A DNA stretch of 64,000 bases from Kiritimatiellia bacterium (GTDB lineage: Bacteria > Verrucomicrobiota > Kiritimatiellia > CAIVKH01): positions 97,261 through 161,260 of the forward strand of contig JBDHQM010000002.1 in assembly GCA_039807095.1 (NCBI GenBank). The letters run 5' to 3'. Positions within the stretch are counted from its first letter, which is position 1. Every line of letters begins with the position of its first letter. Below are positions 23,389 through 61,624 of the stretch, piece after piece. The translations under genes were made by a program, and so were the position numbers. The notes under the pieces were generated by a model, which was not told the origin of the DNA, did no database searches, and saw only the letters and a list, made by a program, of their open reading frames with translations.

Positions 23389-24749
23389 GAACCGGCCTCA
23401 TTCGGAATCAGCCAAAACGAGTGCTTCGCAAATGGGCGGATATCGTAATTCGCCCGAATATTCGAGACCTCCATCATCCGGCTCATCGTCTCGCGAATTT
23501 CTGCCTCGTCCAGCCCTGGAAATTTCTGGGAGCTGTAACCATCCGACACCAGTTGTGCCTCGCGCCGGGCATGAAGTCGTACCCGCCACATGCGCTTCGC
23601 CTCGGCCAACATCCGTTGTTTTGCAGAAAATTGACCGAGCGGTTTCCTGCCCGCCAATTCCACCAGCTCATTTGTAATCCGTTCCGCGGATGTCACCCCG
23701 GACAGACCGGCCATATAGCGCTTGGCAGTTGTCCACTGTTCGTCCGTCCACAAGACACCTCGCTCGCGAGCCGTCTTTCGCCCCTCCAGTGCAACGAACA
23801 GTTCATCCATCGAAAACACGTTCTCACTCAATGCATTCGGCAAGTGATTTTCATATCGCGGATAGCGCTTGGGGCGATACGCAATCGCCGGAACATCCAG
23901 AAGGAAAGATTCGACGGCGGTTGTGCAGTTAAAGTGAATCACCACTTCCGACGCCAGTATCCACTCGTGCACATTGCCGCTGCCATCCACATGCAAACGC
24001 GGATGCCTCTTGGCCAGCTCCAACCACGGTGCATGGCTTTCAGAGGGATGTGGGCGGACGACCACCGCATGCTTTGGATAACGCGCGAGAATCTCAGGCA
24101 CCATGGCGAGATACGCCTCGTGCATCTCGCGATGCATGGCGATCCACTTCTCCATGTAGCCGGGCTCGTTGTTGATCGGATATCGGGCCAATAATTTCTT
24201 CACTTCTTCCGGCGATTTGAAGTGATTGTGAAAAGCGAAGTTGGTGTTCACCAGCAGCATCGGACCGAACCGCGCGCGCAGTTGCTCGACGGGCTCCCGA
24301 TAAAAGGGCCGCAATTCCGGGCGCAAGAAATCGAAGCGAGGGTTGCCGCACAACGCAATCCGATCAACGTATTGTGGATATTCCTCACAGATCGCCTCGC
24401 GTTGCACCTCACCCCACGCGAAGAATCGCGTCACCTGATCCAGGGATTCGGGGACGATCCGCTGTTTGCGATACAGCCACGCATCAAAAAAAACCAATCC
24501 CTCTTCATCCCACGAAACTAATTCGTGTCCCATCGCCCGGCAGCGGCGAAACCAATCCGTTCGCGTCGCGGCAACGCTCTTGTCCAAATAGATCGCGGGT
24601 TCGACCAGATCCGCATAATCCCAGAGTCGCCCCTGCACGCCGAAAAGGACCGGATGCCCTCTGCTCAAAACATTGAGCGCGAGCCACAGCTTTCCGTGAA
24701 ACTCACGTGCCTTCGTCTCTACAGGTATAATGACAGCCGTCTTCTTCAC
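23385..24749 (-). CDS. TagF/KpsS-fold transferase ('surface carbohydrate biosynthesis protein' type), candidate CMP-ulosonate or polyol-phosphate transferase
   Basis: An RPHP motif and a downstream HFNCTTAVESF block resemble the CDP-glycerol glycerophosphotransferase / capsule-synthesis fold. Located beside neuB and neuA. Confidence 0.45.
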   Translation of the reverse strand: MKKTAVIIPVETKAREFHGKLWLALNVLSRGHPVLFGVQGRLWDYADLVEPAIYLDKSVAATRTDWFRRCRAMGHELVSWDEEGLVFFDAWLYRKQRIVPESLDQVTRFFAWGEVQREAICEEYPQYVDRIALCGNPRFDFLRPELRPFYREPVEQLRARFGPMLLVNTNFAFHNHFKSPEEVKKLLARYPINNEPGYMEKWIAMHREMHEAYLAMVPEILARYPKHAVVVRPHPSESHAPWLELAKRHPRLHVDGSGNVHEWILASEVVIHFNCTTAVESFLLDVPAIAYRPKRYPRYENHLPNALSENVFSMDELFVALEGRKTARERGVLWTDEQWTTAKRYMAGLSGVTSAERITNELVELAGRKPLGQFSAKQRMLAEAKRMWRVRLHARREAQLVSDGYSSQKFPGLDEAEIRETMSRMMEVSNIRANYDIRPFAKHSFWLIPNEAGS

Positions 24750-24758
24750 GCTGCATTC

Positions 24759-27011: not shown

Positions 27012-27724
27012 GTCGGATTCTCCCCGCGTTGAAGCAGAAAACTCGCCCACTCCAAATCCATTTCGGAATCAATATCTACTCCAGCCTCTTCAGTCATTTT
27101 GAACAAAACGATTTTGCCGCCCAACCGATTGTTTCCCTGCCGCAGCACCCACGGTTTGAAAATGTAAATGGATCCGTTCTCCCGATAGCGTGGCGCCATG
27201 TCCTGACGCCGCGGGCGTACACGCCAGTCGCGATTGACCGCGACCGCAGATCCATCCTGTTCTTCCCAAAGAAACAGATGAGAGGGCGAAACAGAGACAA
27301 CAGAATCGGCATTCGATTCCTCTAGCAAGGCAATAGCGGAATCAATATCCATTCCGGTTCGAATCGGACACGTTGCTTGTAGAAATACGACGAGGTCAGG
27401 GTCTCCGCCCCGGTCTGCCGCGATGCAATCCAACGCGTGCAACAGCGCAGCCTCGGATGTTGTCGAGTCTTCCGCCAAGACCGCCGGGCGATCAATAATC
27501 TGTGCGCCGGCATCTTGTGCTGCGCACTTAATCTCGGCGTCATCCGTGCTGACATACACACAAGAGACGCGTTGAGACTCAAGCGCATCGGCGACGCTCC
27601 ACGCAATCAGTGGGCGCCCCGCTACAGGACGCACATTTTTTCGCGGCACACCCTTGGATCCGCCGCGCGCCGGGATGATGGCGACGACGTTTTCGAATCG
27701 CTGACTGTGCTGGGAGGGGTTCAT
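27008..27724 (-). CDS. neuA: acylneuraminate (CMP-ulosonate) cytidylyltransferase
   Basis: IPARGGSKGVPRKN motif of the CTP_transf_3 family. Confidence 0.85.
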   Translation of the reverse strand: MNPSQHSQRFENVVAIIPARGGSKGVPRKNVRPVAGRPLIAWSVADALESQRVSCVYVSTDDAEIKCAAQDAGAQIIDRPAVLAEDSTTSEAALLHALDCIAADRGGDPDLVVFLQATCPIRTGMDIDSAIALLEESNADSVVSVSPSHLFLWEEQDGSAVAVNRDWRVRPRRQDMAPRYRENGSIYIFKPWVLRQGNNRLGGKIVLFKMTEEAGVDIDSEMDLEWASFLLQRGENPT

Positions 27725-29481
27725 GCTGAGGCTTCGGCGTTCTTCGCCTTTTTCTCCACCACAAAATCGCCAAGCACCAACACGTCAATCTCCGTACCCA
27801 GGAAGCACGCAACCGCCTGCTCCGGAGTTTGGACAATCGGCTGCCCCTTTACATTGAAGGATGTATTCAACAGCACAGGACAGCCGGTCTTCTTATGAAA
27901 CGCAGTGAGCAACTCGTAGAAGCGCTCGTTGTTTTCCCGACCGACCGACTGCACCCGGCACGAATCATCCACATGGACCGTTGCCGGAATCGCCGACTTC
28001 TTCGCCGGCTGCACTTTGCACGCGATCAGCATGTGCGGACTTTCCTGCCCGATGTCGAAGTATTCATGCACATATTCCTTCAAACACGCCGGAGCAAGCG
28101 GCCGGAAATACTCGCGGAACTTCACGTTGTCGTTAATGTGATCGCGCATCGCCTCCGGATACGGCTTGGCAAGAATACTGCGATTGCCGAGCGCGCGCGG
28201 ACCGAATTCTGCTCCGCCCTGATACCAGCCAATCACCTTCCCCGCAGCCAGTTTGTCAGCAACATCGGCGTAAAGATTTGGCGGACGCGTGTATGCCACG
28301 CCGGCACTCTTGAGCGCCTGCTCCATTTCGGCCGACGTGTAGTCGCCGTGCAGATAATAGTTGTGGTTTTTGACCGGCCGGTAATTCGGATCATGTGCGC
28401 GCTGCGCAAGGAAACACGCGCCGATCGCCAGTCCGGCGTCACCCGATGCAGGCTGCACGAAGATTTCGTCAAATATATGCTCGCGCTCAATCCGCCCGTT
28501 CATCGAGCAGTTCAGCGCAACGCCGCCGCTCAAGCACAGATACTTGATTCCCGTATCTTTGCGCGCATTGCGCAGCACACCCAACACAACCTCCTCAAGG
28601 CGCCGCTGCAAGGCAGCGGCAATATCTTTATGGTGCTGATTTAGCGTTGCGACATCGTACTTCCGGCGCGGGCCGAACACTTCGACAAAGCGGTCCGACA
28701 CCCATTTATTCCGCTCATAATAATACGCCATCCATTCCGGATTGATGGTGATAGTGTATTTCCCGTCATACTGAATGATATCTTCAAAAAACGAATAGTA
28801 GCTCCGCGTCTGCCCCGGCACGATATGATCGGAATCACCAAAGCACGCCAGCGCCATGATGATGCCCTCATGGTGCACATTCTTCCACCCGAGATAGCAG
28901 GTGATCGCGGCATACACCAATCCGAGTGAATGCGGGTAATCGTAGCGGTCATACAAGACCTCAATCGCGCCTGCCCGCCCGACGCCCAGTTTCATCGTCT
29001 TGTTGTCGCCGATGCCGTCAATGCTCAGCAACACAGCATCCTGAAATCCGCTCGGATAATACGAACTCGCCAGATGTGTGAGGTGGTGATCGAAATAGGA
29101 AATCTTTCCCGTAAAACCGGTCTTCTCGCGGATGATCTCTTCCACATTGAACATCTCTTTGATGCGCTCAAACTCCTGAATCATCATGCCCACGCGTTTG
29201 GGGTCGCGAATTGCCGCCTCGAGATACGTTCTGCGAATGCACGCCTCCGGATCCCCGCCGAATGCAATTTCGTCCACATCGGCCATCGTCAGCTTTGCCT
29301 TCCGTAGGCAATCCTGAATTGCATCTGTCGGAAACAGCCGGCTGTGCTTATCCAGTGAATAGCGCTCCTGCTCGCACGCGGCGATCAGCTTGCCATCCAC
29401 CATAATCGCGGCTGCTGTATCGTGTGCCAGATACTTGATCCCCAAAATCACTTTTTTCATTCGATTCATCCTTTCCAACAT
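27721..29481 (-). CDS. carbamoyltransferase (NodU/CmcH family); start probably at 29460
   Basis: FDHHLTHL metal-binding motif and a YrdC/Kae1-like C-terminal region. Confidence 0.8.
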   Translation of the reverse strand: MLERMNRMKKVILGIKYLAHDTAAAIMVDGKLIAACEQERYSLDKHSRLFPTDAIQDCLRKAKLTMADVDEIAFGGDPEACIRRTYLEAAIRDPKRVGMMIQEFERIKEMFNVEEIIREKTGFTGKISYFDHHLTHLASSYYPSGFQDAVLLSIDGIGDNKTMKLGVGRAGAIEVLYDRYDYPHSLGLVYAAITCYLGWKNVHHEGIIMALACFGDSDHIVPGQTRSYYSFFEDIIQYDGKYTITINPEWMAYYYERNKWVSDRFVEVFGPRRKYDVATLNQHHKDIAAALQRRLEEVVLGVLRNARKDTGIKYLCLSGGVALNCSMNGRIEREHIFDEIFVQPASGDAGLAIGACFLAQRAHDPNYRPVKNHNYYLHGDYTSAEMEQALKSAGVAYTRPPNLYADVADKLAAGKVIGWYQGGAEFGPRALGNRSILAKPYPEAMRDHINDNVKFREYFRPLAPACLKEYVHEYFDIGQESPHMLIACKVQPAKKSAIPATVHVDDSCRVQSVGRENNERFYELLTAFHKKTGCPVLLNTSFNVKGQPIVQTPEQAVACFLGTEIDVLVLGDFVVEKKAKNAEASA

Positions 29482-29492
29482 TTCGTAAATTT

Positions 29493-30389
29493 CTATATCG
29501 CTCGCGTCGGCTCTTCCCCCGATTTAACCGCAGAATTCACCGCACGTGACAAATAAATACCCGCAGGCGAAACGTAAAATTCACGCGGCGCATCACCAGG
29601 ACCGATATCCGTTCCCTTCATAAACTTTCGGATTTGATGGAAGTGCAGATACATCATCTCTTCGCCGTTCGCACCGTATACCCGGCCCTCACACCAGCGC
29701 ATGCTCAACGATGGGTCCTCCAGCATCAAGCGCTGATGTTTTCCGCTCGTCGTCCACACCCGCTCCCACCACACGCGTGGCAGCGGCAACCGGCGAATCC
29801 AGCGCGTGGTCAACCGGCCAATGGCGCTGAGCTGATACCACTGCAGCACCTTGGATAACCCGTCTTCATCCACTCGCCAGTATCTGGCAGAGTCCTCTAC
29901 CCGTTCCTGAATTTTCGAAACCCGGCGAAAAAGGTTGTTCCATGCCTCCTGATTCCGAAACAGGGTGAAGTGTCCCGATATACGGTTCGGACGCGCGGAG
30001 ATCACGTCGTAATTCGCCAGAAGCTCCTCCGTCAGAAAGTGCCGCAGATTTCCCCAGATCACATCCAGATCGCAGCATCCCCAGAAATCGTACCCCTTCA
30101 ATTCCTCCTCGAAAATCAAACCGCTCATCATTTTGAGATCGCACAGCTTATAGGTGAATGAGGGATTCACCCGAATTCGATACCCCGACGCCGCGCTTGC
30201 GCGAGTATTGAAACGATCAATATCCATCGGAAAAAACTTAACGTTTTCCGGCGTCGAGGCGGGCGCGGATTGATCGGTGAAGATCAGCCAATCCACATCG
30301 GGGTTGAAACGACACGAATGTAGCAAGGCCGGCATCCAAAATGGCAATGGACCGAACCACACGTTGACAAGCGCTATGCGCGCACTCAT
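29493..30389 (-). CDS. putative glycosyltransferase-like protein (DxD-containing, GT-A-like)
   Basis: CCDLDVIW DxD-like motif. Lies among the GT genes. Confidence 0.3.
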   Translation of the reverse strand: MSARIALVNVWFGPLPFWMPALLHSCRFNPDVDWLIFTDQSAPASTPENVKFFPMDIDRFNTRASAASGYRIRVNPSFTYKLCDLKMMSGLIFEEELKGYDFWGCCDLDVIWGNLRHFLTEELLANYDVISARPNRISGHFTLFRNQEAWNNLFRRVSKIQERVEDSARYWRVDEDGLSKVLQWYQLSAIGRLTTRWIRRLPLPRVWWERVWTTSGKHQRLMLEDPSLSMRWCEGRVYGANGEEMMYLHFHQIRKFMKGTDIGPGDAPREFYVSPAGIYLSRAVNSAVKSGEEPTRAI

Positions 30390-31177
30390 TCCGACCCCCT
30401 TCCCAACAGGGAAACGAAGATATCGGATGCAAAACGACGCATGCGATAAATAAGAGAGAAGTGCGACCGGAGGCGCCGGCGCTCGCGCTTCATTTCGGAC
30501 GAATGCTTTTTTTGCGCAGAAACGCCGGTTGCATCATATTCGGCCACCAGTACGTCACAGCGTTCCATTCGAGCGCCGCCTAAAACTGCGCGCACAAAAA
30601 AATCCCAGTCCGCGATATATTTGAATGTCGTGTCATACGGGCCGAATTTCTCGAATGCTCTACGCCGGATAAATGCCGACTGATGATTCACCGGGCGGCG
30701 GTAGAAGTGATGCAGATCGAGCGCACCTGAATGTATTTTTTTGACCGGTGCACGCCCATCCGGCCACACGCGAACATGTGCGCCGACCAGCACGTCTACA
30801 TCACTCTTTTCGAGCAATGGCGCAATACTCGCAACTGTGCTCCGGTTCACAAATGCGTCTCCACCGTTGAGAAAAAGCAGCCACTCTCCCGATGCAGCGC
30901 GCGCGCCTTTATTCATCGCGTCGTAAATGCCGCGATCCGGTTCTGAAATCAATTTTGCAATGGCATCATTGTGCGCCTGGAGAATCGCCAACGTTCCATC
31001 TGTTGAAGCGCCGTCCACAACAATCCACTCAAACAATTCTGTTCTCTGACCGAGAATCGAATCAATCGTCCGCTGTATTCGTCCGACCTCATTGCGGCAC
31101 ACCGTAATGACGCTGATCAGCGGACGGACACGTTCGCTCGACGCATATTCGGCTACAGCTTTTGGGCCGGAGTTCAC
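30386..31177 (-). CDS. glycosyltransferase family 2
   Basis: ISVITVCRN...DGASTDGT...DAD-like GT-A motifs. Confidence 0.8.
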   Translation of the reverse strand: MNSGPKAVAEYASSERVRPLISVITVCRNEVGRIQRTIDSILGQRTELFEWIVVDGASTDGTLAILQAHNDAIAKLISEPDRGIYDAMNKGARAASGEWLLFLNGGDAFVNRSTVASIAPLLEKSDVDVLVGAHVRVWPDGRAPVKKIHSGALDLHHFYRRPVNHQSAFIRRRAFEKFGPYDTTFKYIADWDFFVRAVLGGARMERCDVLVAEYDATGVSAQKKHSSEMKRERRRLRSHFSLIYRMRRFASDIFVSLLGRGSE

Positions 31178-32217
31178 GAAGTTACCCCCGAACGGGATTT
31201 TTGCTGCATCCGCATAAAGTCAAATAGCCGCTCTGCAATCAACCCCACCCCAGTGGCAGCAAATACTAAGTGCGCAAATCCCCCGACCTTCCACGGCTGC
31301 GGGCATCGCCACAGAAGGATTGCCGAGGCAGCAAGCGCGATTCCAACGGCGCGCGCAACGCGCTGCTGTGACACTCGTCCGTTTGCAGCGCTCACGTAGC
31401 GTCGCGCCAACGCCCGCCGCTGCTCTGCCGATAACTTTCGCGAAGCAGCCCATTTCAACAGATCGCCCCAGACCTGTTGGATTCCCGCATACTGCAATTG
31501 ACGCGGCCTGCCCGTCACCCGGTTGCCGGAATGAACGCGCGCCATGGCTACCGGCGACAACACATCACTGGAATAAAGTCGTCCAACTGCTGCCAATCGA
31601 ACCCACAGGTGCGTATCCTGTCCCGTGCGCAAGCGTGTATTAAAATTACCGCTCTTCTGCAAAAGCTCCCGCCGCAACACGATTCCATCGGTACAAAACG
31701 CGCCCGACCCGCCGCGCGCCAGGCTTTCAAATAACTGTTCAGGAAGAATCGCATCCCGAATTCGAAGTACTTCTGGCCAATTGGCTTTTTCCCAGCGCTC
31801 GTGAGCCGCCTCGTCTTCAAAGATCATGCCGACAGCATCATAGACACCATCCGCATCCGGATGCGCCTCCAGAGTTCGAATCACACCGCGAAACCGACCG
31901 GGAAGAAAAATGTCGTCTGCATCCAAGAATGCCACCAAGGGATGCACTGCATGTTCGATCCCAAGATTCCGCGCTGCTCCGGCGCCTCGATTTTCGCCAT
32001 TGGCGTGGCGGAGCAAGCGGACCTGAGCAAATTGCGCAACCAAATGCTCACAAATCTCGAGTGACCCATCTGTAGAACCGTCATCCACCAGAATCACCTC
32101 ACCCGTCTCGGGTTGCGCCAATGCAGAGCGCACCGCACTCTCGACAAACGGCGCGGCGTTAAAAACCGGAATCACTACAGAAATCATTAGCGCAGGATTG
32201 TGTGCTGTTTCAGACAT
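31174..32217 (-). CDS. glycosyltransferase family 2
   Basis: ISVVIPVFN...VDDGSTDGS...DADD motifs. Confidence 0.8.
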   Translation of the reverse strand: MSETAHNPALMISVVIPVFNAAPFVESAVRSALAQPETGEVILVDDGSTDGSLEICEHLVAQFAQVRLLRHANGENRGAGAARNLGIEHAVHPLVAFLDADDIFLPGRFRGVIRTLEAHPDADGVYDAVGMIFEDEAAHERWEKANWPEVLRIRDAILPEQLFESLARGGSGAFCTDGIVLRRELLQKSGNFNTRLRTGQDTHLWVRLAAVGRLYSSDVLSPVAMARVHSGNRVTGRPRQLQYAGIQQVWGDLLKWAASRKLSAEQRRALARRYVSAANGRVSQQRVARAVGIALAASAILLWRCPQPWKVGGFAHLVFAATGVGLIAERLFDFMRMQQKSRSGVTS

Positions 32218-33109
32218 CCGGCACCCCTACGATTGGCTCCTCGGCGATCACTCCACGAACTGAGCGCTGTTCGACTGCACGCCAGTAGTGTGCGCGTAGC
32301 TTCGTTTTCATCCCGGTTTCAGTGCTTCGCGTCAATTGCCCGCCGTGCTGGCGATATAACATTTGCGTTTCCGGCAGGGAGAACACAGGGATATCCGCCT
32401 TTGCTGCGCGCCGCAAGAAGTCCCGATCGCCCGCACACGGCCACGGAGCGAAGCCGCCCAGGCGGGTGAGGACTGTCTTGGAAAGCCCAATGGCGCCCTT
32501 GACCTGGCGCGGATGTTTCTTCTCGGCGGGCTGTAGCCGGTCATCGCAAATCGCCGCCATCGGACGCACAAGAAATGCGGGCGTTATGGCGGCGCATTGA
32601 CGACAAAAAGAATAGAAGGACGCGAGAGCGCCGGGCACCAGCGCATCGTCAGCATCCACGAACAGGACAAACTCACCGCGGGATGCCAGCAGTAGAGAGT
32701 TGCGAATAACAAACAGTCCACAATGGGACCGGAAGTTCAGCACGCGAACGCGTCTACGCATCTCCGATGAAAGTGCGGCGATATACCGGTGTGCTGCGGA
32801 AAGCGTAGCTTCACAACAGTCTATCGCGATCAACACTTCCAGCTCCACCCCAACCGGCGCAGGTTGGTGCAGGATGGAATCCAAGCAATCTGCCAAATAG
32901 CGATCTACAGCCCGGGCAGCGATCAGCACAGAAAACACGCCCGGATCGGATTCGCGGACCAAGGAATTCACGGGACGACAAGATTGATTGATATTGCGCT
33001 CCCACGCTGCAGCCTGCGCAGCAGCCGAACGCGCAGCTACCATCCCGCTTGCGTATCGCCACAATGCGCCCGCAATCATGACGAACCTCCAGGGATATGG
33101 GCCGCCCAA
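32210..33109 (-). CDS. glycosyltransferase family 2-like (start probably 33079)
   Basis: VLIAARAVDRYL...FVDADD motifs. Confidence 0.6.
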   Translation of the reverse strand: MGGPYPWRFVMIAGALWRYASGMVAARSAAAQAAAWERNINQSCRPVNSLVRESDPGVFSVLIAARAVDRYLADCLDSILHQPAPVGVELEVLIAIDCCEATLSAAHRYIAALSSEMRRRVRVLNFRSHCGLFVIRNSLLLASRGEFVLFVDADDALVPGALASFYSFCRQCAAITPAFLVRPMAAICDDRLQPAEKKHPRQVKGAIGLSKTVLTRLGGFAPWPCAGDRDFLRRAAKADIPVFSLPETQMLYRQHGGQLTRSTETGMKTKLRAHYWRAVEQRSVRGVIAEEPIVGVPDV

Positions 33110-33885
33110 AAATCGGGCTCATATTTTCCCCACGCATGGCACCCGAACGGCAAACGCCCGTTCATGCGAGCCACATAGCTCGATGGCTCCAGTTCCAGCG
33201 CAAAATACATCGCTTCCTCTTCGCGAGGAATCCGGAAACCGGGAGGCGCAAACATTGTCCAGAACATATCTTCATTTCCCGGCCACTGCGCAGCGAACTT
33301 CCCGTGCGTCATCAGGGTCTGGCGAAAACCCGGTATACGGCGCAGCGAGAAACCGCCATTGCCCACGCGAAAATCACGGCGATACCAGAGTCGCGCCAAT
33401 CCCGGCCACTGCACCAACCGTGGCCGCGCCTCGCGCACATGGCGATGGCGCAATAGGTCCCGACTGCCCCACGGCGCGCCGATATAGTCATACCCACGCG
33501 CGCACCAGTCCTCCAATTCATCGCGGAAAACAAAGGCATCCAACTGATAAATCAGCAAGTATTCCCACCCGCGAAATCGGGCATAAAAATCATCGGAAAG
33601 CAGCAGGCGGCTGTATGCGTCAACGCTCACAAATGCCGATGCTGGGAAATACTCGGTTTTCACTCCCTCAAACTCCGGAGGCAGGATCAAACCTTCCGGG
33701 CAAATGATGCGGATGTCGTGGCGGCCCAAAATACGGCGGCACTGTGCAAGCGACAGGCGCTCTTCCGCGCTGAGCGTCTCCTTGAAGCAGGGCACTAATA
33801 CGACACAACTCATTTTGTCATCCACACGTTCCCGCACACCCGGCGCATCACAGCCATACGTCACGCCGAGTTGACGATCTCCCAT
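33076..33885 (-). CDS. DUF5672-like glycan-cluster protein (putative GT-A-like transferase)
   Basis: YQLDAFVFRD DxD-type block. Typical companion of GT2 genes. Confidence 0.45.
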   Translation of the reverse strand: MGDRQLGVTYGCDAPGVRERVDDKMSCVVLVPCFKETLSAEERLSLAQCRRILGRHDIRIICPEGLILPPEFEGVKTEYFPASAFVSVDAYSRLLLSDDFYARFRGWEYLLIYQLDAFVFRDELEDWCARGYDYIGAPWGSRDLLRHRHVREARPRLVQWPGLARLWYRRDFRVGNGGFSLRRIPGFRQTLMTHGKFAAQWPGNEDMFWTMFAPPGFRIPREEEAMYFALELEPSSYVARMNGRLPFGCHAWGKYEPDFWAAHIPGGSS

Positions 33886-35174
33886 TGATGCGACACCAGA
33901 ACCCCCGAATTATCGCTGATCTTTTGCAGTTTGCCCGTCCCGTAAAAATCTCCGTCAACGACGAATAACTCCAGGCCGTCAATCAATTCATCCGCAACGG
34001 TTTTGCCAACCTTGCAGAACAGATGCACCACATAGCGTCCCGGAAGCAGCGGCAACTTTGGAATTGTGAGGCGAATCGTGCCGCGCCGCCCCAAGCGAAG
34101 GGTCTCCGGATGCGAGACGCGCGAAAAACACAGGAATTTTTCCTGACGGGTCTCACCCGATGCCACTCGAAAATAAATGAAGCACGGTTGATCGTTCATC
34201 ACGGTGCGCTCGTAATCCAACTCAACCGTAATGGTTTCGCCAGACTGCGCCGCGTTGATGACGACGTTTCGCTCGTTACGAATTCGATAACCAGTAAAAC
34301 GCACACTGCCGTCCCCGCTCCGGTCGGTTCGTTCGTTGATGGGCAGATGCGACGCCTTCGGTAAATGCGTTTTCAGATACGCTTCTGTAATTTCCTGCAC
34401 ATTGCCGATCATCTGGCACTCACCGCCGCGCAAGAGAACAGCCCGGGAACAGAGCGCCTGAATCGCGGCCATGTTGTGACTGACAAATAAAATCGTACGC
34501 CCCTCTTTTGAGACGTCTTGCATACGGCCAAGGCATTTCGCCTGAAACTCCGCATCACCTACCGCGAGCACCTCGTCCACGATCAATATCTCTGGCTCCA
34601 AATGCGCCGCCACCGCAAAGGCAAGTCGAACGTACATTCCGCTCGAATAACGCTTCACCGGTGTATCTATGAACGCGCTCAACTCGGCGAAGGCAACAAT
34701 CTCGTCCAGTTTGCGGGCGACTTCTCGCTCCTTCATGCCGAGAATCGTGCCGTTCATAAATACATTTTCTCGCCCGGTCAGCTCCGGATGGAAACCCGTA
34801 CCCACCTCAAGCAACGAACCAATTCGACCGCGAATTCGCACCTCGCCAGAGGTGGGTTCTGTGATGCGACTCAGAATCTTCAGGAGCGTGGATTTGCCCG
34901 CGCCATTGCGGCCGATGATGCCGACAACTTCTCCCGGCTGCACATCGAATGAAACATCGCGCAAGGCCCAGAAGTCCTGGTTTCCAGCCTGTTCTGCCTC
35001 GACCCGGCGACGCTCAGTCGCGCCGTATCCGATTTTTTCAAACGCCTTCCGCGGATCGCGGCCGCGCAGTTTGTGCCACCAATACTTGGTTTCATCAATT
35101 AGCGTGTGCCGCCCGATCGTCCCCAATCGGTATCGCTTCGAAAGATTGTGAATGGAAATTGCCGCCTCGCTCAT
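33861..35174 (-). CDS. wzt: ABC transporter ATP-binding protein Wzt with C-terminal glycan-binding domain
   Basis: Walker A GRNGAGKST, signature YSSGM, Walker B ILIVDE. A C-terminal extension of about 170 aa as in Wzt/TagH-type exporters. Confidence 0.85.
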   Translation of the reverse strand: MSEAAISIHNLSKRYRLGTIGRHTLIDETKYWWHKLRGRDPRKAFEKIGYGATERRRVEAEQAGNQDFWALRDVSFDVQPGEVVGIIGRNGAGKSTLLKILSRITEPTSGEVRIRGRIGSLLEVGTGFHPELTGRENVFMNGTILGMKEREVARKLDEIVAFAELSAFIDTPVKRYSSGMYVRLAFAVAAHLEPEILIVDEVLAVGDAEFQAKCLGRMQDVSKEGRTILFVSHNMAAIQALCSRAVLLRGGECQMIGNVQEITEAYLKTHLPKASHLPINERTDRSGDGSVRFTGYRIRNERNVVINAAQSGETITVELDYERTVMNDQPCFIYFRVASGETRQEKFLCFSRVSHPETLRLGRRGTIRLTIPKLPLLPGRYVVHLFCKVGKTVADELIDGLELFVVDGDFYGTGKLQKISDNSGVLVSHQWEIVNSA

Positions 35175-36007
35175 ATCGTATCCACAAACGTGCGTTGAAC
35201 TTTATTGAAGAGGAAAAGGCCGGACACCAAAACAAGCGCAGTGACAAACCAGCTCAAGCCCAGCCCCCAAAGCTCCGGGCTCCCCCGCCCCGTGAGTGCA
35301 TAGCGGCTGAACTCCACAACCGCGGTCATCGGATTAAGCCACAGCACAAACTTCAGGATCGGTTTCACAACCAGTTTGGCGGGATACACAATTGGCGTGC
35401 CATACATCCACAACTGCACCAGAAACGGCAGAGCGAAACGCAGGTCGCGATACTTGATCGTCGCCGCCGAGACCCACAATCCGAATCCGAGTCCGAGCAG
35501 TCCCGTCTGTAGAATCAACAGAGGCAGGAAGAAAACCCACGCATTCGGCTCCATCGCGCTCCCGCGGAAATAATACCAAAAGTAGAAGCCGAGAAACAAA
35601 AGCGAGTTCAGTGCAAGATGGGCAAACTGCACAAACACGCCGGACAACGGCATGATCAGGCGCGGGAAATACACCTTTGTTAGGATATTTGTGTTGGACA
35701 CCAGCGATGTCGCGCCTTGATTCAACACGCCCTGAAAATAATTCCAAAACAGCGTTCCGCTCATGTAGAAAATGAACTGCGGAATTCCATCTGTCGAAAT
35801 CTTTGCCACCGTTCCGAAGATCACCGTAAAGACGATCGTCGTAAGCAGCGGCTGAATCACAAACCAAAGCGGCCCGATGATTGTCTGGCGATACACCGCG
35901 GTCAGCTCGCGCTTGACCCACAGGGTCAAAAGATCACGGTATTCCCACAGCTCGCGCACCGGAATCCGCCACCAGGGACTGTTTGCTCGAATAACGGTTG
36001 TCTGCAT
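35171..36007 (-). CDS. wzm: ABC-2 type polysaccharide exporter permease Wzm
   Basis: Six-TM ABC-2 permease, ATGA-coupled to wzt. Confidence 0.85.
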   Translation of the reverse strand: MQTTVIRANSPWWRIPVRELWEYRDLLTLWVKRELTAVYRQTIIGPLWFVIQPLLTTIVFTVIFGTVAKISTDGIPQFIFYMSGTLFWNYFQGVLNQGATSLVSNTNILTKVYFPRLIMPLSGVFVQFAHLALNSLLFLGFYFWYYFRGSAMEPNAWVFFLPLLILQTGLLGLGFGLWVSAATIKYRDLRFALPFLVQLWMYGTPIVYPAKLVVKPILKFVLWLNPMTAVVEFSRYALTGRGSPELWGLGLSWFVTALVLVSGLFLFNKVQRTFVDTI

Positions 36008-54967: not shown

Positions 54968-56032
54968 GTGCCCATGAGCGCTATTTTTCGCCTACTTCGC
55001 GTCGCTACCGTCGCCGCCATCCTCTTCGCCGCACTCCCCGCTCACGCACAGCAGGAAGTCAAAACAACCCCCGCCAAAGAAGTTGCCGCCAACCCGCAGC
55101 GCTTCTGGGCGCGCGGCGTAGTCTTCCGCGACACCCTCGTCGAGGCGCCCGCCAAAGAAACCATCACACTCGCCGGCGCGCGCGTGTACAAATTCACAAC
55201 CAAAACCGTCGGCACCTGCTACGCCGACGAAAAAGTACTCGCCGCTCTTCAAGCGCTCGCACCCAACCGCGAATACATCTTCGGCGCATCCGTCCTCAGC
55301 CAGCAGACCGGCTTCTTCCGGAAAAAGACCATCTATCGAGTCGTCGTCAACGGCCTCGTCATCCCCACCCAGGGAGTTGACGATCTCCCCGAAATGATCG
55401 AGACCGCCATTGAGCAGGCCGCCGAAGAGAATCCTCTCCGCCAGCACCTCGTCATTCTCAAGCAGCTTATCGTCAGCGTCCAGGAATCCATCACCGCTTC
55501 AGCCGCCACCGACCAGATTGATCGCTCGCAATACCTGGACCCCAAATCAGAGTACTTCGACAAACTCATCCAAGTCTGTCGGCGCGCCGTCAACGACCTT
55601 GAAACCGAAACCAAAACTCCGGGCCGCGAACAGCTCGCCCAAATCCTCGCCGCCCTCGTCTCGCTTGAAGAAGGCGCACTCACCCCCGCTGCACAGCCCG
55701 CAACCCACCACACAGATAACAGCAGCGACACCGCCTCCACTCCGCCCGACGAGCAGCCCGCGACGGAAAACGCCCCCGCCACCGAGTCGCCCGTAAAAAC
55801 CAAATCCCGCCACTGGTACTGGCCCTTCGGCGGCAGCGACAAATCCGCACCCGCCACGGAAGAGATCGAAACACAAACACCCGCTGCTGAACCCCTCGAC
55901 CCCGAACCCCAACCGCCCCTCGCGCTCTCCGCAAAGAACATCGCGCCCGCCCCCGAAGCACAAGACAACGAACCCCCTCTCGACGCGAGCGAAAGCGAAG
56001 ACGAACCCGCCATCGAAGAATCCGCCCCCTGA
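54968..56032 (+). CDS. secreted protein with acidic Pro/Glu/Ala/Thr-rich low-complexity C-terminus
   Basis: Signal peptide (..ALPAHAQQ). The C-terminal roughly 130 aa are low-complexity. Confidence 0.5.
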   Translation: MPMSAIFRLLRVATVAAILFAALPAHAQQEVKTTPAKEVAANPQRFWARGVVFRDTLVEAPAKETITLAGARVYKFTTKTVGTCYADEKVLAALQALAPNREYIFGASVLSQQTGFFRKKTIYRVVVNGLVIPTQGVDDLPEMIETAIEQAAEENPLRQHLVILKQLIVSVQESITASAATDQIDRSQYLDPKSEYFDKLIQVCRRAVNDLETETKTPGREQLAQILAALVSLEEGALTPAAQPATHHTDNSSDTASTPPDEQPATENAPATESPVKTKSRHWYWPFGGSDKSAPATEEIETQTPAAEPLDPEPQPPLALSAKNIAPAPEAQDNEPPLDASESEDEPAIEESAP

Positions 56033-56042
56033 TCAAGCGTCA

Positions 56043-56071
56043 TTGCAACTCGCGCTCACCTTCGCTATAAT
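56043..56071 (+). promoter_or_regulatory. sigma-70-like promoter TTGCAA-N17-TATAAT for tRNA-Thr
   Basis: The -10 hexamer ends about 18 nt before the mature tRNA 5' end. Confidence 0.5.
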
Positions 56072-56088
56072 TCCGCCTTCCTACCCAC

Positions 56089-56161
56089 GCCAGCGTAGCT
56101 CAGTTGGTAGAGCAGCTGATTTGTAATCAGCAGGTCGGGGGTTCGAATCCCTTCGCTGGCT
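56089..56161 (+). tRNA. tRNA-Thr (anticodon UGU)
   Basis: Cloverleaf: acceptor GCCAGCG/CGCTGGC, D-arm GCTC..GAGC, anticodon stem GCTGA/TCAGC with loop TTTGTAA, T-loop TTCGAAT. A genomic CCA follows. Confidence 0.85.
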
Positions 56162-56335
56162 CCACTCTTTTCCCTCGTTTTCCCAAGCAATCAGGCGCAT
56201 TTTGGCCAATAAACACGGGCCTTTTCTCAATATCCGCCCTTTTCGCGCTGTTCGCTTTTCTTCGCTTACGTGCCTTTGCGAAGTCTTCCAAAATGATGCA
56301 CGAAAGCAGAGCAGAAGCAGAGCATCCCTTTTTGA

Positions 56336-56569
56336 CTGATTTTCCTGCACGCCCCTGCCCTGCCTCTCGGTCGCCCCGGTCGCGGTCTTTTTACACCCCG
56401 CCAAACGCGCAACACGGCCTCAGTGGTTCCGGTCGGCTCCAGTATCGCGGCGCGGATAGATCGGGCCGCCTGCGCGATTCCTGCGGATGTTTATGAAGAC
56501 AAGCACGTAGGGCCGCATGTGGGATCAGATCACTTCCCGGTCGTCGTGGAGTTTGCCACCCGCGAGTAG
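56336..56569 (+). pseudogene. possible 3' remnant of an endonuclease/exonuclease/phosphatase (EEP) family gene
   Basis: Stop-to-stop frame with no ATG. It ends ..HVGPHVGSDHFPVVVEFATRE*, and SDH-x-PV is the typical EEP C-terminal catalytic motif. It lies between the tRNA and the groEL terminator. Confidence 0.25.
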
Positions 56570-56653
56570 CGCGCTCACGAACGCTCTGCAATTCTTCAAA
56601 GAACGGAACGCCGATCTCCCGATCGGCATCCCCTCCTTCTCACACCATGCCGC

Positions 56654-56684
56654 AAAAAAACGGGCGGCCCGGAGGCCGCCCGTT
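56654..56684 (-). terminator. rho-independent terminator of groEL
   Basis: GGGCGGCC-TCCG-GGCCGCCC hairpin followed by TTTTTTT on the minus strand, about 25 nt after the groEL stop. Confidence 0.8.
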
Positions 56685-56709
56685 TCTATAGTCCGTTTGA
56701 CCGGATGGA

Positions 56710-58332
56710 TTAGTAGTCCATTCCGCCCGGAGGCATGGCCGGAGCTGCTTCCTTCTTCTCGGGCACCTCGGTGATCATGCACTCGGTCGTGAGCAACAGA
56801 CCGGCGATGCTCGCCGCGTGCTGGAGCGCCGAACGGGTGACCTTGGTCGGATCAATGATACCGGCCTTGATCATGTCCACATACTCGCCAGAAGCGACGT
56901 TGTAGCCATTGCTCCCCTTCGACTTCTTGACTTCCTGCACCACCACAGCGCCTTCGATGCCTGCGTTGGCCACCAACTGACGGAGCGGAGACTCGCACGC
57001 ACGGCGCACAATGTCAGCGCCAATGGCTTCGTCACCGGAGAGGCTGAGGTCGTCCAGCGCGTTCTGCGCGCGCAAGAGCGCAACGCCACCGCCTGCCACA
57101 ATACCCTCTTCCACCGCTGCGCGGGTCGCGTGCAACGCGTCTTCCACGCGGGCCTTCTTCTCCTTCATCTCCGTCTCGGTCGCCGCACCGACGTTGATCA
57201 CAGCCACACCGCCTGCCAGCTTGGCCAGACGTTCCTGCAGCTTCTCGCGATCGTAGTCGGACGTGGTTTCCTCGATCTGGCGACGAATCTGGCCAATGCG
57301 GGCCTGAATGTCCGCAGACTTGCCAGCGCCTTCAACGATGGTCGTGTTGTCCTTGTCAATCGTGACGCGCTTCGCGCGGCCGAGATCGGCCGGCTGGATG
57401 CTCTCCAGCTTGATGCCGAGGTCTTCCGAAATGAAGCGACCACCGGTCAGGATTGCGATGTCTTCCATCATGGCCTTGCGGCGATCACCGAAGCCCGGCG
57501 CCTTGACGGCGGCGACTTGCAGCGTGCCACGGATCTTGTTGACCACGAGGGTTGCCAGCGCTTCGCCTTCCACGTCTTCCGCGATGATGAGGAGCGGACG
57601 ACCGCTCTTCGCCACCGACTGGAGCAACGGGAGGAGATCCTGCAGGTTCGAAATCTTCTTTTCGAAGATCAAGAGATAAGCATCGTCCAGAACCGCTTCC
57701 ATCGTGTCCGGGTTGGTCACGAAGTACGGGGAGAGATAGCCCTTGTCGAACTGCATACCTTCCACGACATCGAGCGAGGTCTCAATGCTCTTGGCCTCTT
57801 CAACCGTGATGGTGCCGTCCTTGCCGACCTTGTCCATCGCGTCCGCAATGATTTCGCCGATCGCCGTTTCGCCGTTGGCCGAAACCGTCGCAACCTGCGC
57901 AATCTCTGCGCGGTCTTTGACCTTCTTGCTCTGCTTGTGGAGGTTCGCGACGATGGACTCAACCGCGGCGTCAATTCCGCGCTTGAGGCTCATCGGGCTC
58001 GCACCCGCGGTGACGTTCTTCAGACCTTCGCGATAGATGGCTTCCGCCAGCACGGTGGCTGTCGTTGTTCCATCGCCCGCGATGTCGCTCGTCTTGCTCG
58101 CGACTTCGCGAACCATCTGAGCGCCCATGTTCTCGAAGGGATCCGCCAATTCGACTTCCTTCGCTACGGATACGCCGTCTTTCGTGATCGTCGGCGAACC
58201 GAACTTCTTATCAATCACGACATTGCGGCCACGCGGACCCAGCGTCGCCTTGACCGCGCGGCTCAATTTCTCCACGCCGGCCAGGATGAGCTGACGCGCT
58301 TCCTGGTCATATTTCAACTGTTTAGCTGCCAT
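56710..58332 (-). CDS. groEL: chaperonin GroEL
   Basis: Canonical GroEL sequence with a Gly-Met C-terminal tail. Confidence 0.97.
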
Positions 58333-58349
58333 TTGCTGTTCTCCTTAAA

Positions 58350-58640
58350 TCAGGCCTCGATCACGCCGAGGATGTCTTCCTCGCGCACAATCTGGTATTC
58401 CTTGCCATCAACTTTGACCTCGGTTCCGCCGTATTTCGGCATCAACACGCGGTCGCCCTTCTTCACGTTGAAGGGAATCTTCTCACCCTTCTCGTTCAAC
58501 TTACCCGTACCCACGGCAATGACTTTGCCTTCCTGGGGCTTCTCTTTGGCCGTGTCCGGAATGATGATGCCACCCTTGTTGACTTCCCCTTCCTTGAGGG
58601 GCTCCACGAGGACGCGATCACCTAGCGGTTGGATCTTCAT
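58350..58640 (-). CDS. groES: co-chaperonin GroES
   Basis: [12 protein letters not shown].. 96 aa. GAGAGGAAAG RBS. Confidence 0.95.
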
Positions 58641-58721
58641 GCGGTTCTTTCCTCTCGTTTCTGTTGCTTGTGTATTCCCGGGCGCAGGCACCCGCCGGTG
58701 CGCCCAATGAAAGTTGCGAAA

Positions 58722-58748
58722 GCGCTCGCGCGAATCGCGCGCGAGCGC
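58722..58748. promoter_or_regulatory. perfect 11-5-11 GC-rich palindrome GCGCTCGCGCG-AATCG-CGCGCGAGCGC between dnaK and groES
   Basis: 16 bp after the dnaK stop. Followed on the minus strand by a weak T-rich run. Candidate attenuator/terminator or operator. Confidence 0.4.
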
Positions 58749-58763
58749 CGTGTGCGCGATGGC

Positions 58764-60695
58764 TTATTTCTTCTTGTCGTCGTCCACCATCGTGAAGTCG
58801 GCGTCAATGACGTCGCCTTCAGCCTTCTTCTCCGATGCGCCTGCATCGCCGGACGGCGGCGGAGGCGGTGCACCCGCACCCGCGCCGGGCTGCTGCTTGG
58901 CCTGCGCATACATCTCGGTCGAAATCGCCTGCATCTGGGCAGTCACATCCTCAATGCCGCTCTTCATCTTGGCCGCATCGTTGTTCTTCACCGCATCGCG
59001 CAGGTCGCTGACGGCCGACTCCAATTTCGACTTCTTGTCCGCCGCAACCTTGTCGCCGTGCTCCTTGAGGAACTTCTCCGCCTCATACGCCATGCCGTCG
59101 GCGCGATTGCGTGTCTCCACTTCCTCACGCTTCTTCGCATCGTCCGAGGCGTGAGCCTCCGCATCGCGGCGCATCTGCTCAATCTCCTCTTTCGAGAGAC
59201 CGCTCGATGCCGTGATCGTGATCTTCTGCTCTTTGCCCGTGCCCAAATCCTTCGCGCTCACGTGCAAAATGCCGTTCGCATCAATATCAAACGTCACTTC
59301 GATCTGCGGAACGCCGCGCGGCGCAGGCGGAATGCCGTCGAGATGGAACTTCCCGATCGTTTTATTGTCGCCTGCCATCTTGCGCTCGCCCTGGAGCACG
59401 TGAATCTCCACAGTCGGCTGGCTGTCCGCCGCCGTGCTGAAAATTTCGCTCTTCTTCGTCGGGATCGTCGTATTGCGCTCAATCAACGGCGTGAAAATTC
59501 CGCCGAGCGTTTCGATACCCAGCGTCAACGGCGTCACGTCGAGCAGGAGCACATCCTTCACCTCGCCCTTCAGCACACCGCCCTGAATACCCGCGCCAAT
59601 CGCCACCACTTCATCCGGGTTCACACCCTTGTGCGGTTCCTTGTTGAAGAACTTCTTCACCACTTCCTGAACCTTCGGCATGCGCGTCATACCGCCGACG
59701 AGAATGACCTCGTCAATGTCCGACGCACTCAAACCCGAATCGCGCAGGCAGTTTTCCACCGGCTTGATCGAACGCTGAATCAAATCATCCACCAACTGCT
59801 CAAGTTTCGCGCGCGTCAGCGTCACCGTCAGGTGCTTCGGTCCGCTCGCATCCGCAGTGATGAACGGAAGGTTGATCTCCGTGCTCTGCGAGCTGGAAAG
59901 CTCAATCTTCGCCTTCTCCGCCGCCTCTTTCAAACGCTGCAGCGCCATCGGATCCTTCGAAAGATCAACGCCGTTATCGCGCTTGAATTCCGCAATCAAC
60001 CACTCAATCACACGCAAATCGAAATCGTCACCGCCGAGGTGCGTGTCGCCGTTCGTCGCCTTCACCTCGAACACGCCGTCGCCGATTTCCAGAATCGAAA
60101 TGTCGAACGTACCACCGCCCAGGTCGTACACCGCCACCTTCTCTTCCTTCTTCTTATCCAACCCGTACGCGAGCGACGAAGCCGTCGGCTCGTTGATGAT
60201 GCGCAGCACTTCCAAGCCCGCAATCCGCCCCGCGTCCTTCGTCGCCTGGCGCTGGCTGTCATTGAAATAGGCAGGCACGGTCACAATCGCCTGCGTAATC
60301 TTCTCACCGAGAAACGCCTCCGCATCCGCCTTGAGCTTCTGCAGAATCATCGCCGAAATCTCGGGCGGCGAATACGACTTGTCGCCAATCTTAACCGCAA
60401 CGTCGCCATTGCCCGCCGCCGCAATTTCATACGGAACCCGCGTCGCCTCGTTGCCCATCTCGGCAAACTTGCGACCCATGAACCGCTTCACGGAATAAAT
60501 CGTCTGCTTCGGATTCGTCACCGCCTGGCGCTTCGCCGCCTGGCCAACCAACCGCTCACCCGACTTCGTGAACGCAACAATCGAAGGCGTCGTGCGACCC
60601 CCTTCCGCGTTCGGCACCACGACCGGCTCGCCACCCTCCATAACGGACATGCACGAGTTCGTCGTACCCAAATCAATACCTAATACCTTGGACAT
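58764..60695 (-). CDS. dnaK: molecular chaperone DnaK (Hsp70)
   Basis: Canonical Hsp70 motifs ([16 protein letters not shown]). GAGGAG RBS. Confidence 0.97.
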
Positions 60696-60737
60696 AAAAT
60701 ACTCCTCACTTCCTTAAACCAAAATGTGACACCCACT

Positions 60738-60756
60738 AAAGCAGGAGCCGTGCCAA
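60738..60756 (-). promoter_or_regulatory. sigma-54-like -24/-12 element TTGGCACGGCTCCTGCTTT upstream of dnaK
   Basis: GG-N10-GC invariant spacing. The -12 GC lies 46 nt upstream of the dnaK ATG. It is part of an inverted-repeat pair (60725..60756 and 60866..60894). Confidence 0.35.
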
Positions 60757-60928
60757 AAACAGCGAGAAAAGAGGCGTATAAAATTACAACGCGTTGTGAT
60801 TGTGGATGTTGCGCAAACTTTTCGCGCCTAAAAGCTGCGGCAAATTCTCGCACTAGTGTGCCACATTGGCACGGACAGCCTATTCCGTGTCACACTTGGC
60901 CTTAGAAATGGCGCACCGGATAGCCGGA

Positions 60929-61624
60929 TCAACCAGCACCCTGCGCGTAGGCAAGAATCGCCTCGGCGTGGAGGATCATCGTGTCGTAGAGCGGCAGCGG
61001 TGTGTCTTCCGGCTTGATGAGCATACTCAGTTCCGTGCAGGCGAGAATCACCGCATCCGCGCCCTGCGCAGCCAGGTCCGCGATCATCCGCTTGGCGGCG
61101 GCGCGCGATTTTTCCTCAATCACGCCGTGCGCCAGCTCATCCCAAACCATTCGATCCAACGCCTGCCGCTCCGCAGCGGGCGGAATGAGCGATGAAATCC
61201 CGAGCGATTCAAAATGCTTCTGAAAGAAGCCGTACTCCATCGTTGCCTTCGTCCCCAACAGCGCGACCTTCTTCCGCCCGTCTCGCAGCAAAGGCGCGCT
61301 CGTCGCCTCCATGATCGTCAAAATCTTCAGCGGCGACGCATCGCGAATCAAATCGTAGGCATTGTGCGGTGTATTCGCCAGAATCGCAGCGAACTCCGCG
61401 CCAGAATTTTTGAGTCGCTGCAAAACGCGAAGCAGAATTTCCGCCACCTTCTCCCACTGATTTGTGCTAAACAGCCCGATCAGCTCCTGCAAATTCACGC
61501 TCTCGATGGACATCTCGGGGAAACTCAACCCGCCCGCCTTCGCGTTGTGTTCGCGACAAATCGCGAGATAATAGTGAACCGTGGACTCAGGCGTGAGCCC
61601 GCCAATCAACCCGATCTTCTTCAC
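60929..61624 (-). CDS. aspartate/glutamate racemase family protein (probable GTG start)
   Basis: KKIGLIGGLTPEST N-terminal motif and a second Cys region (ILACTELS). Confidence 0.65.
   Translation of the reverse strand: MKKIGLIGGLTPESTVHYYLAICREHNAKAGGLSFPEMSIESVNLQELIGLFSTNQWEKVAEILLRVLQRLKNSGAEFAAILANTPHNAYDLIRDASPLKILTIMEATSAPLLRDGRKKVALLGTKATMEYGFFQKHFESLGISSLIPPAAERQALDRMVWDELAHGVIEEKSRAAAKRMIADLAAQGADAVILACTELSMLIKPEDTPLPLYDTMILHAEAILAYAQGAG

Follow-up and report, generated by a model that had tools for sequence, protein, structure and literature searches.

Sigma-54 promoters have been predicted in silico in Planctomycetota and Bacteroidota, where they are enriched at the genes for GroEL, GroES, DnaK, DnaJ, GrpE and IbpA (Carrera-Reyna et al., 2025, PMC12316311). 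That paper makes no mention of Kiritimatiellia, Lentisphaerota, an enhancer or an activator, and it lists no chaperone enrichment for Verrucomicrobiota. The present analysis concerns the control region of a dnaK-groES-groEL operon in a 64-kb stretch of DNA from a Kiritimatiellia bacterium (contig JBDHQM010000002.1, positions 97,261 to 161,260; the whole stretch is hereafter called the window), in which a putative sigma-54 promoter and an upstream enhancer precede dnaK. The genes are the same as in the published prediction, and Planctomycetota belong to the same Planctomycetes-Verrucomicrobia-Chlamydiae (PVC) superphylum; the differences lie in the dnaK-groES-groEL operon, the enhancer consensus and the candidate two-component activator described here. 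The finding therefore extends a type that was already predicted: the window is a further well-supported case of a sigma-54 chaperone promoter, and the enhancer and the candidate regulator are new. For Kiritimatiellia, Lentisphaerae or Akkermansia, the literature search found no paper that deals with sigma-54 at chaperone genes.

The textbook NtrB/NtrC-glnAp2 system of enteric bacteria likewise combines a soluble histidine kinase with an activator made of a receiver domain (REC), an AAA+ domain and a Fis-type helix-turn-helix (HTH), and it has tandem palindromic enhancers about 100-140 bp upstream of a -24/-12 promoter. It serves nitrogen assimilation and not chaperones, its sites read TGCACC-N5-GGTGCA instead of GTGACA-N3-TGTCAC, and the candidate activator presented below falls under the NtrC and AtoC cut-offs. 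In Myxococcus xanthus, the two-component sigma-54 activator HsfB/HsfA drives lonD. This is also a two-component sigma-54 activator at a heat-shock gene, but it concerns one protease gene in a deltaproteobacterium, whereas here the main dnaK-groESL operon is concerned. In Escherichia coli, PspF at pspA and the sigma-54 promoter of ibpB again place a holdase or stress gene under sigma-54 and an enhancer-binding protein. Unlike the present candidate, PspF lacks a receiver domain, and its signal is membrane stress; dnaK and groESL of E. coli use sigma-32. In Bacteroidetes, grpE and groES are said to be sigma-54-dependent, a point for which Sabree and colleagues (2009) are reportedly the source. 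To our knowledge, heat-shock regulation in the PVC superphylum outside Chlamydia is essentially unstudied. In Chlamydia, whose members are the best studied of this superphylum, dnaK and groE are described as controlled by an HrcA repressor acting at CIRCE (controlling inverted repeat of chaperone expression) beside a sigma-66 promoter (PMC8762339, PMC12154930). The target genes and the superphylum are the same, but control is negative there and the window has no CIRCE.

The predicted promoter and enhancer upstream of dnaK

The 233-nt region upstream of dnaK contains the following features.

60738..60756, minus strand: putative sigma-54 type -24/-12 promoter, TTGGCACGGCTCCTGCTTT, with GG at 60753-60754 and GC at 60741-60742
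60696..60729, minus strand: predicted 5' untranslated region (UTR) of about 34 nt, with Shine-Dalgarno (SD) sequence AAGGAAGTGAGGAG and transcription start site (TSS) at about 60729
60726..60732, plus strand: lone GTGACAC half-site over the predicted TSS, one of three GTGACAC in the 64 kb
60782..60801, no strand: 20-bp near-perfect palindrome, AATCACAACG/CGTTGTAATT, between enhancer and promoter
60837..60851, minus strand: weak third enhancer-like site, GCGAGAATTTGCCGC, at -95, with an 8/12 match to GTGACA-N3-TGTCAC
60858..60872, no strand: predicted main enhancer site (upstream activator sequence, UAS), perfect palindrome GTGCCACATTGGCAC, GTGCCA-CAT-TGGCAC (GTGCCA-ATG-TGGCAC on the minus strand)
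60879..60895, minus strand: predicted distal enhancer half-site, GTGTGACAC (60887..60895), at -137, 21 bp upstream of the main site

The -24/-12 sequence with sigma-54 spacing pointed out by the initial annotation at 60738..60756 (minus strand) is present and is the only consensus match in the window. TTGGCACGGCTCCTGCTTT is the sole occurrence of TGGCAC-N5-YTGCW (chance expectation 0.12) and also of the looser TGGYAY-N5-YTGCW (chance expectation 0.33). Its core TGGCACGGCTCCTGCT (60740..60755) has a single deviation from TGGCAC-N5-TTGCW, a C for T before the GC. The TSS was placed near 60729 from the -12 C at 60741, following the sigma-54 position rule.

The 90% cluster of the window DnaK bears Kiritimatiellia names. 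The closest dnaK loci were found in Kiritimatiellia metagenome-assembled genomes (MAGs; DnaK identity 94% and 89%), followed by Verrucomicrobiota and Kiritimatiellae MAGs (79%) and then by one Lentisphaerota MAG. A ten-locus set was formed by the window, eight Kiritimatiellia/Verrucomicrobiota MAGs and the Lentisphaerota MAG (the nine relatives being L001-L009), and other dnaK loci (Gemmatimonadales, Desulfomonile and others, 623 kb) were used as controls. The dnaK-groES-groEL order is kept in L001-L009 and missing from the 71 other dnaK loci fetched. Exactly one TTGGCAYG-N4-YTGCW was present per locus in 10/10 loci, on the coding strand and 35-63 nt before the dnaK ATG; none was present in the 623 kb of control loci on either strand. 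Another 21 heat-shock promoters, found in metagenomes, retain the -24/-12 element too; together with the ten dnaK-groESL loci, they make up the 31 heat-shock promoters considered below. Five conserved blocks were seen when the window was aligned with L001, L002 and L123: the distal GGTG(T/C)GACAC (with one variable base), the palindrome, GCAAC, the TTGGCA...CTGCTT promoter and the ribosome-binding site.

The embedded perfect palindrome at 60858..60872, also noted initially, was found again and proved homologous to a conserved enhancer site. GTGCCACATTGGCAC is the sole GNGMCA-N3-TGKCNC in the window (0.40 expected). It starts about 116-117 nt upstream of the -24 TGGCAC, its centre lies at about -136 from the predicted TSS, and it thus occupies the range of about 80-150 bp from a sigma-54 promoter that is typical of a UAS. 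The three window sites (-137, -116 and -95) are phased by 21 bp, GCGAGAATTTGCCGC being promoter-proximal to the main site, and the distal half-site becomes a full palindrome in L123 and many other loci. In 9/10 loci, GnG(A/C)CA-N3-TG(G/T)CnC starts 103-123 nt upstream of TGGCA; L007 has only degenerate versions of the palindrome at the same distance from the promoter. The relaxed palindrome pattern occurs about once per 10 kb in the control loci, and its recurrence in a 25-nt window can therefore hardly be due to chance. Among the 31 heat-shock promoters, the best site lies 75-124 nt upstream of TTGGCA (100-124 nt in 30/31), with a second site in many of them 21-24 bp or about 36-42 bp further upstream. 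The consensus GTGACA-N3-TGTCAC, newly defined here, is the predicted activator site.

An AT-rich tract between enhancer and promoter is general across the 31 promoters. At the position equivalent to 60782..60801, the relatives are AT-rich (65-69% AT); the palindrome found there in the window is possibly a bending or accessory site. A site for integration host factor (IHF) in this interval was considered and rejected, as a match with at most one mismatch was found in only 8/31 promoters, the window not being among them. The GCAAC block (60808..60812, about 55 nt upstream of the promoter) is invariant in the four closest relatives and was not seen farther out. The GTGACAC at the predicted TSS is not conserved, being missing at that place in L001, L002 and L123, and its function is uncertain.

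The textbook heat-shock controls were looked for as well. The reported lack of CIRCE and HAIR (HspR-associated inverted repeat) upstream of dnaK and groES extends to the whole window: neither CIRCE (TTAGCACTC-N9-GAGTGCTAA) nor HAIR (CTTGAGT-N7-ACTCAAG) gave a match within 3 mismatches anywhere in the 64 kb. No HrcA domain was detected among the window open reading frames (ORFs) scanned. Neither the 235 nt that precede dnaK nor the dnaK-groES spacer contained the sigma-32 pattern CTTGAAA-N12-16-CCCCATNT within 4 mismatches, and no Bacteroidetes-type promoter hexamers were found near dnaK or groES. The best sigma-70-like hexamer pairs upstream of dnaK score 8/12, on a scale for which the phylum's own housekeeping consensus may differ. 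Rfam returned zero matches at E<=1 in 58300..61000. As regards an RNA thermometer, shuffled sequences fold as well as the predicted 5' UTR does (z=+0.21).

The initial annotation had also described 60725..60756 and 60866..60894 as an imperfect inverted-repeat pair. The repeated sequence exists, in two separate pieces: a perfect 9-nt match (I3, 60748-60756 versus 60866-60874) and an 18-nt match at 78% (I1, 60715-60732 versus 60887-60904). In the I3 match, CCGTGCCAA versus TTGGCACGG, the partner of the -24 element is the right half of the enhancer palindrome, and the TGTGACAC ends are enhancer half-sites. The pair is apparent because the -24 TTGGCACGG resembles the half-site TGGCAC, in this genome only. 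That the two arms act jointly, as a cruciform, a loop anchor or an RNA stem, is barely conceivable, even though both matches are real and two of the three GTGACAC copies of the window lie within the arms. Dinucleotide shuffles of the region yield a perfect 9-nt inverted repeat in 13% of cases, so that the match does not exceed chance. A distance of 110-150 nt separates the arms, whose interiors are unpaired; the RNA would lack most of the region, which precedes the predicted TSS; and the I3 pairing is missing from the close relatives L001, L002 and L123. The repeat was consequently rejected as a structural unit.

A putative heat-shock regulon and its candidate activator

Metagenome contigs were scanned for GACANNNTGNCNC-N85-110-TTGGCAYGNNNNYTGC, and at least 120 loci were found. 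At least 90 distinct first downstream ORFs were present among the scan matches listed, to which the following counts also refer. Pfam assigned at least 12 of these to Hsp70, at least 6 to Hsp20, at least 2 to ClpB and at least 1 to a sigma-70-family factor (292 aa); two further dnaK loci, at which a spurious ORF had been picked, were recognized by tblastn. Since the scan pattern was derived from dnaK loci, the dnaK matches are not independent evidence; those upstream of hsp20, clpB and the sigma factor are. When the matches listed were sorted by their score against GTGACA-N3-TGTCAC, the share of heat-shock genes increased with the score (0/17 at 8/12, 3/24 at 9/12, 11/34 at 10/12 and 8/13 at 11/12), although both 12/12 sites precede non-heat-shock genes. 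By exact look-up, the DnaK sources were Akkermansia muciniphila, Victivallis vadensis and Kiritimatiellia, the ClpB source was Lentisphaeria, and the Hsp20 sources were Victivallales, Verrucomicrobiota, Sphaerochaeta and Prevotella. The A. muciniphila locus likewise reads dnaK-groES-groEL. As the same enhancer and promoter precede hsp20 and clpB in related phyla, the composite of the two would mark a proteostasis/heat-shock regulon, and a heat-shock regulon is indeed what it looks like from these comparisons.

Gene content was noted at three loci with this composite. In L141 (3763..4638), it stands before the 292-aa sigma-70-family factor (regions 1.2, 2, 3 and 4), which scores below the RpoD, RpoS and RpoH cut-offs; a sigma cascade is conceivable here. 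In the same contig, a sigma-70-like promoter serves the divergent groES. In L152 (3810..7701), the composite precedes a 196-aa protein without Pfam match, after which come two segments resembling DnaK (47-49% identity) that may form an Hsp70 paralogue module. In L084 (2745..4227), the composite pattern lies downstream of an rpoN-like ORF (RpoN box ARRTVAKYR) and upstream of an acetate kinase gene.

A candidate for the activator came from two of the loci that had been used as controls. In L053 (Omnitrophota) and L029, a histidine kinase (HisKA, HATPase_c) and an NtrC-type regulator (REC, Sigma54_activat, AAA lid and HTH_8 according to Pfam) lie directly upstream of dnaK. The regulator has the features of the NtrC family, namely a REC, a sigma-54 AAA+ domain with GAFTGA, a Fis-type HTH and a cognate histidine kinase. 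The kinase-activator-dnaK order was also present in three further homologues examined; in L053, L029 and L204-L209, the kinase, the NtrC-type activator, about 200 nt and dnaK follow one another in 8/8 loci, which represent 5 distinct genomic contexts. The spacers of this Omnitrophota type contain palindromes similar in kind to the enhancer sites above (e.g. ATGCCA-AAA-TGGCAC, GAGTCA-TAA-TGGCGC and GTGTCG-AAA-TGTCTC) at -103..-108 and -127..-132 from TGGCAY-N5-TTGA. The pattern applied to the control loci missed this promoter because its -12 reads TTGA. TTGA in place of TTGC was seen in 5/5 dnaK promoters (L053, L029, L204, L206 and L208), which points to a -12 preference of sigma-54 that is specific to this lineage. 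As the kinases lack any hydrophobic segment, they are cytoplasmic.

Against the NCBIfam equivalogs (NtrC, AtoC, ZraR, GlrR and others), the activator stayed below every cut-off (AtoC 505 < 714, NtrC 442 < 559). It was searched against 1.84 billion cluster representatives, of which about 97,000 were NtrC-like at E<=1e-30. Cluster names were looked up for ten full-length representatives from the top 17 matches; two were Kiritimatiellia clusters (50% and 51% identity) and one was Spirochaetales, lineages in which the composite is also found at heat-shock genes. The Kiritimatiellia protein (P0233 family) is well conserved (over 120 clusters, 63-76% identity), and its gene is preceded by that of a PAS-HisKA-HATPase kinase of about 395 aa. 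The same regulator and kinase domains were present in the Kiritimatiellia P0233, P0420 and P0457 loci. In L210 (4787..4819), a TATACT hexamer is closely followed by three GTGACA half-sites, all within the 35 nt that precede the start codon of the kinase gene, and L212 (~4790) has GGGACAATTTGACAT at the equivalent place; these half-sites may serve autoregulation of the kinase-activator operon. Another response-regulator activator, that of L112, was considered as an autoregulated candidate and rejected, as it has a single poor site and a frameshifted gene and its taxon was not assigned.

Akkermansia is reported to be genetically tractable. In A. muciniphila, rpoN is Amuc_0021 (PMC12552655), Amuc_0312 is a sigma-54-specific two-component regulator and Amuc_0311/0312 is the single such pair listed (PMC5945754). 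This pair would be the equivalent of the candidate.

Proposed mechanism and alternatives

The initial annotation had suggested that the chaperone operon is under non-canonical control, by an enhancer or by a repressor, and the conservation of promoter and enhancer across loci supports the enhancer-dependent option. It is probable that dnaK-groES-groEL is controlled by a sigma-54 promoter and an upstream enhancer bound by an activator. The elements, their places and their conservation, the genes of the regulon and the linkage of kinase and activator to dnaK in Omnitrophota are observed; the sigma-54 dependence, the activator and the signal are inferred. Transcription would start near 60729 from the RpoN promoter at 60740..60755, where the sigma-54 holoenzyme would form a closed complex that it is unable to open alone. 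An ATP-dependent enhancer-binding protein would activate it from the 15-bp palindrome GTGCCAatgTGGCAC (60858..60872) and from the half-site and the weak site that flank it in phase at 21 bp, and a DNA loop over the AT-rich spacer would bring the protein into contact with the polymerase. The best candidate for this protein is the putative Kiritimatiellia orthologue (P0233 family) of the NtrC-type regulator, acting with its soluble PAS histidine kinase, and the inducing signal is presumed to be heat or unfolded protein.

Several points weigh against this proposal. Everything in it rests on sequence comparison. The -12 region is CTGC and not TTGC. No GAFTGA or RpoN-box protein was found in the 64-kb window, whose Pfam survey found no regulator; likewise, no GAFTGA activator or rpoN stood beside the target in L001-L009 or in any heat-shock locus among the scan matches listed. 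The Kiritimatiellia candidate activator is not linked to dnaK, and its 50% identity with the Omnitrophota protein does not prove orthology in a family as large as NtrC. The other scan matches listed are unrelated sigma-54 operons (e.g. formate-dehydrogenase-like and hydantoinase operons), some of which have their own adjacent activators. As GACA-N3-TGTC-like palindromes precede such operons too, they are not exclusive to the putative heat-shock regulon, and the enhancer motif alone does not identify the regulator. An essential operon with a strictly activator-dependent promoter also needs a basal source of transcription.

This last point bears on the view that the operon is mainly read from another promoter (housekeeping, sigma-32-type or by read-through from the upstream racemase gene), the sigma-54 element being used in stress only or idle. 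Being normally essential, dnaK and groESL require expression at a basal level; the interval from the racemase stop (60929) to dnaK showed no terminator-like site; and the housekeeping consensus of the phylum may not be the one that was scored. We nevertheless consider this view unlikely, given that the best sigma-70-like pairs reach only 8/12 and that no sigma-32-like site lies within 4 mismatches; moreover, the genes upstream vary among relatives while the -24/-12 and enhancer blocks stay, and the same composite precedes hsp20 and clpB. Negative control of the HrcA or HspR kind, with the palindrome as a repressor operator, is far less probable still. The option had been raised initially, classical heat-shock operators are palindromes and a lone GTGACAC half-site overlaps the predicted TSS, but this half-site is not conserved. 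The palindromic site lies about 100-124 nt upstream in 30/31 promoters, usually in tandem at 21-24 bp, which is the geometry of an activator and not of an operator; it is invariably accompanied by a sigma-54 promoter, a type that depends on an activator, and in Omnitrophota an activator gene adjoins dnaK.

The identity of the activator is a separate matter. Heat-shock control usually follows a logic of chaperone titration, as in sigma-32/DnaK and HrcA/GroEL, and PspF/PspA works likewise. The enhancer might thus be bound by a different enhancer-binding protein, for instance a PspF-like one without receiver domain that is restrained by a chaperone; the absence of linkage between the Kiritimatiellia candidate and dnaK, and the use of GACA/TGTC-type palindromes by several activator families, would fit with this. 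We regard it as a minority possibility, in view of the kinase-activator-dnaK linkage in all eight Omnitrophota-type loci and their five contexts, the Kiritimatiellia and Spirochaetales clusters among the closest relatives looked up for the activator, and the three GTGACA half-sites before the start codon of the Kiritimatiellia kinase-activator operon L210. Returning to the PAS kinase and NtrC-type activator, we tentatively propose, as a possibility that falls somewhat short of probable, that this pair, GTGACA-N3-TGTCAC enhancers and sigma-54 form a master positive regulator of heat-shock genes (dnaK-groESL, hsp20 and clpB) across Kiritimatiellota, Verrucomicrobiota (including A. muciniphila), Lentisphaerota, Omnitrophota and perhaps parts of Spirochaetota and Bacteroidota.

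If sigma-54 control of the window operon is true, a main chaperone operon depends on an enhancer-activated sigma-54 promoter and not on sigma-32 or a repressor. If it is true across phyla, it would be an uncharacterized class of heat-shock control beside sigma-32, HrcA, HspR, CtsR and RheA. As the same architecture is present in the cultivable A. muciniphila and V. vadensis, the idea is directly testable. The enhancer consensus, the regulon list and the candidate kinase-activator pair are starting points for the stress physiology of a health-relevant gut bacterium.

Operon layout and other features of the window

The genes dnaK, groES and groEL lie head to tail on the minus strand of the window, with the following features.

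58764..60695, minus strand: dnaK, 643 aa, Pfam HSP70 (E=4e-270)
58641..58763, minus strand: dnaK-groES spacer, with two strong GC hairpins and a minimum free energy of -49.1 kcal/mol
58350..58640, minus strand: groES, 96 aa, Pfam Cpn10 (ORF 58350..58691), SD GAGAGGAAAG, same start used by relatives
56710..58332, minus strand: groEL, 540 aa, Pfam Cpn60_TCP1 (E=9e-81)
56605..56632, minus strand: terminator-like hairpin with a 12-pair stem and a T-rich tail, about 78 nt past the groEL stop

The gene order given by the initial annotation stands, but its gaps of 120 and 18 bp were corrected. The listed groES ORF began at GTG 58691, whereas the true start is the ATG at 58640, behind a strong SD; the gaps are therefore 123 nt (dnaK-groES) and 17 nt (groES-groEL). 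As also stated there, the block contains neither grpE nor dnaJ, for which there is no room between the three genes. GroEL is 80-96% identical across L001-L009, where groEL always follows groES. The hairpin at 56605..56632 is the probable end of the operon. Upstream (5') of dnaK, Pfam identified an Asp/Glu racemase, a GreA/Rnk-like factor, ruvB and ruvA.

The fold of the dnaK-groES spacer has a z-score of only -1.5 because the sequence is GC-rich. In L001-L007, a strong hairpin of differing sequence stands right after the dnaK stop and about 25-45 nt remain before groES, which is too small for a promoter. No sigma-54, sigma-70 or sigma-32 match was found in the window spacer. The spacer hairpins are probably an intercistronic stabilizer or a partial terminator, which in the latter case would probably set the dnaK:groESL ratio. 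We infer that the three genes are co-transcribed as one operon. In two Verrucomicrobiota-like contigs, L096 (5400..8600) and L160, about 3 kb of extra genes lie between dnaK and groES; a separate sigma-54 promoter for groES was not found in these two.

A tRNA-Thr(TGT) gene (56043..56164, plus strand) is convergent with groEL. The only good sigma-70-like promoter in 56000..61200 (TTGCAA-17-TATAAT) precedes it.

Elsewhere in the window, a glycan-synthesis cluster of about 30 kb (5176..36007, minus strand) was found. Several large ORFs without Pfam match lie at 8791..16769. The cluster encodes many glycosyltransferases of families GT1, GT2 and GT4, together with MBOAT, carbamoyltransferase and cytidylyltransferase enzymes and Wzm/Wzt ABC (ATP-binding cassette) export. 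The ORF at 24759..27050 codes for a 763-aa fusion protein in which CBS, NeuB and SAF are joined to a TIM barrel of the xylose-isomerase-like type. Two transposase genes (DDE_Tnp_1 and IS110 family) lie side by side at 1016..3810, at the edge of the cluster.

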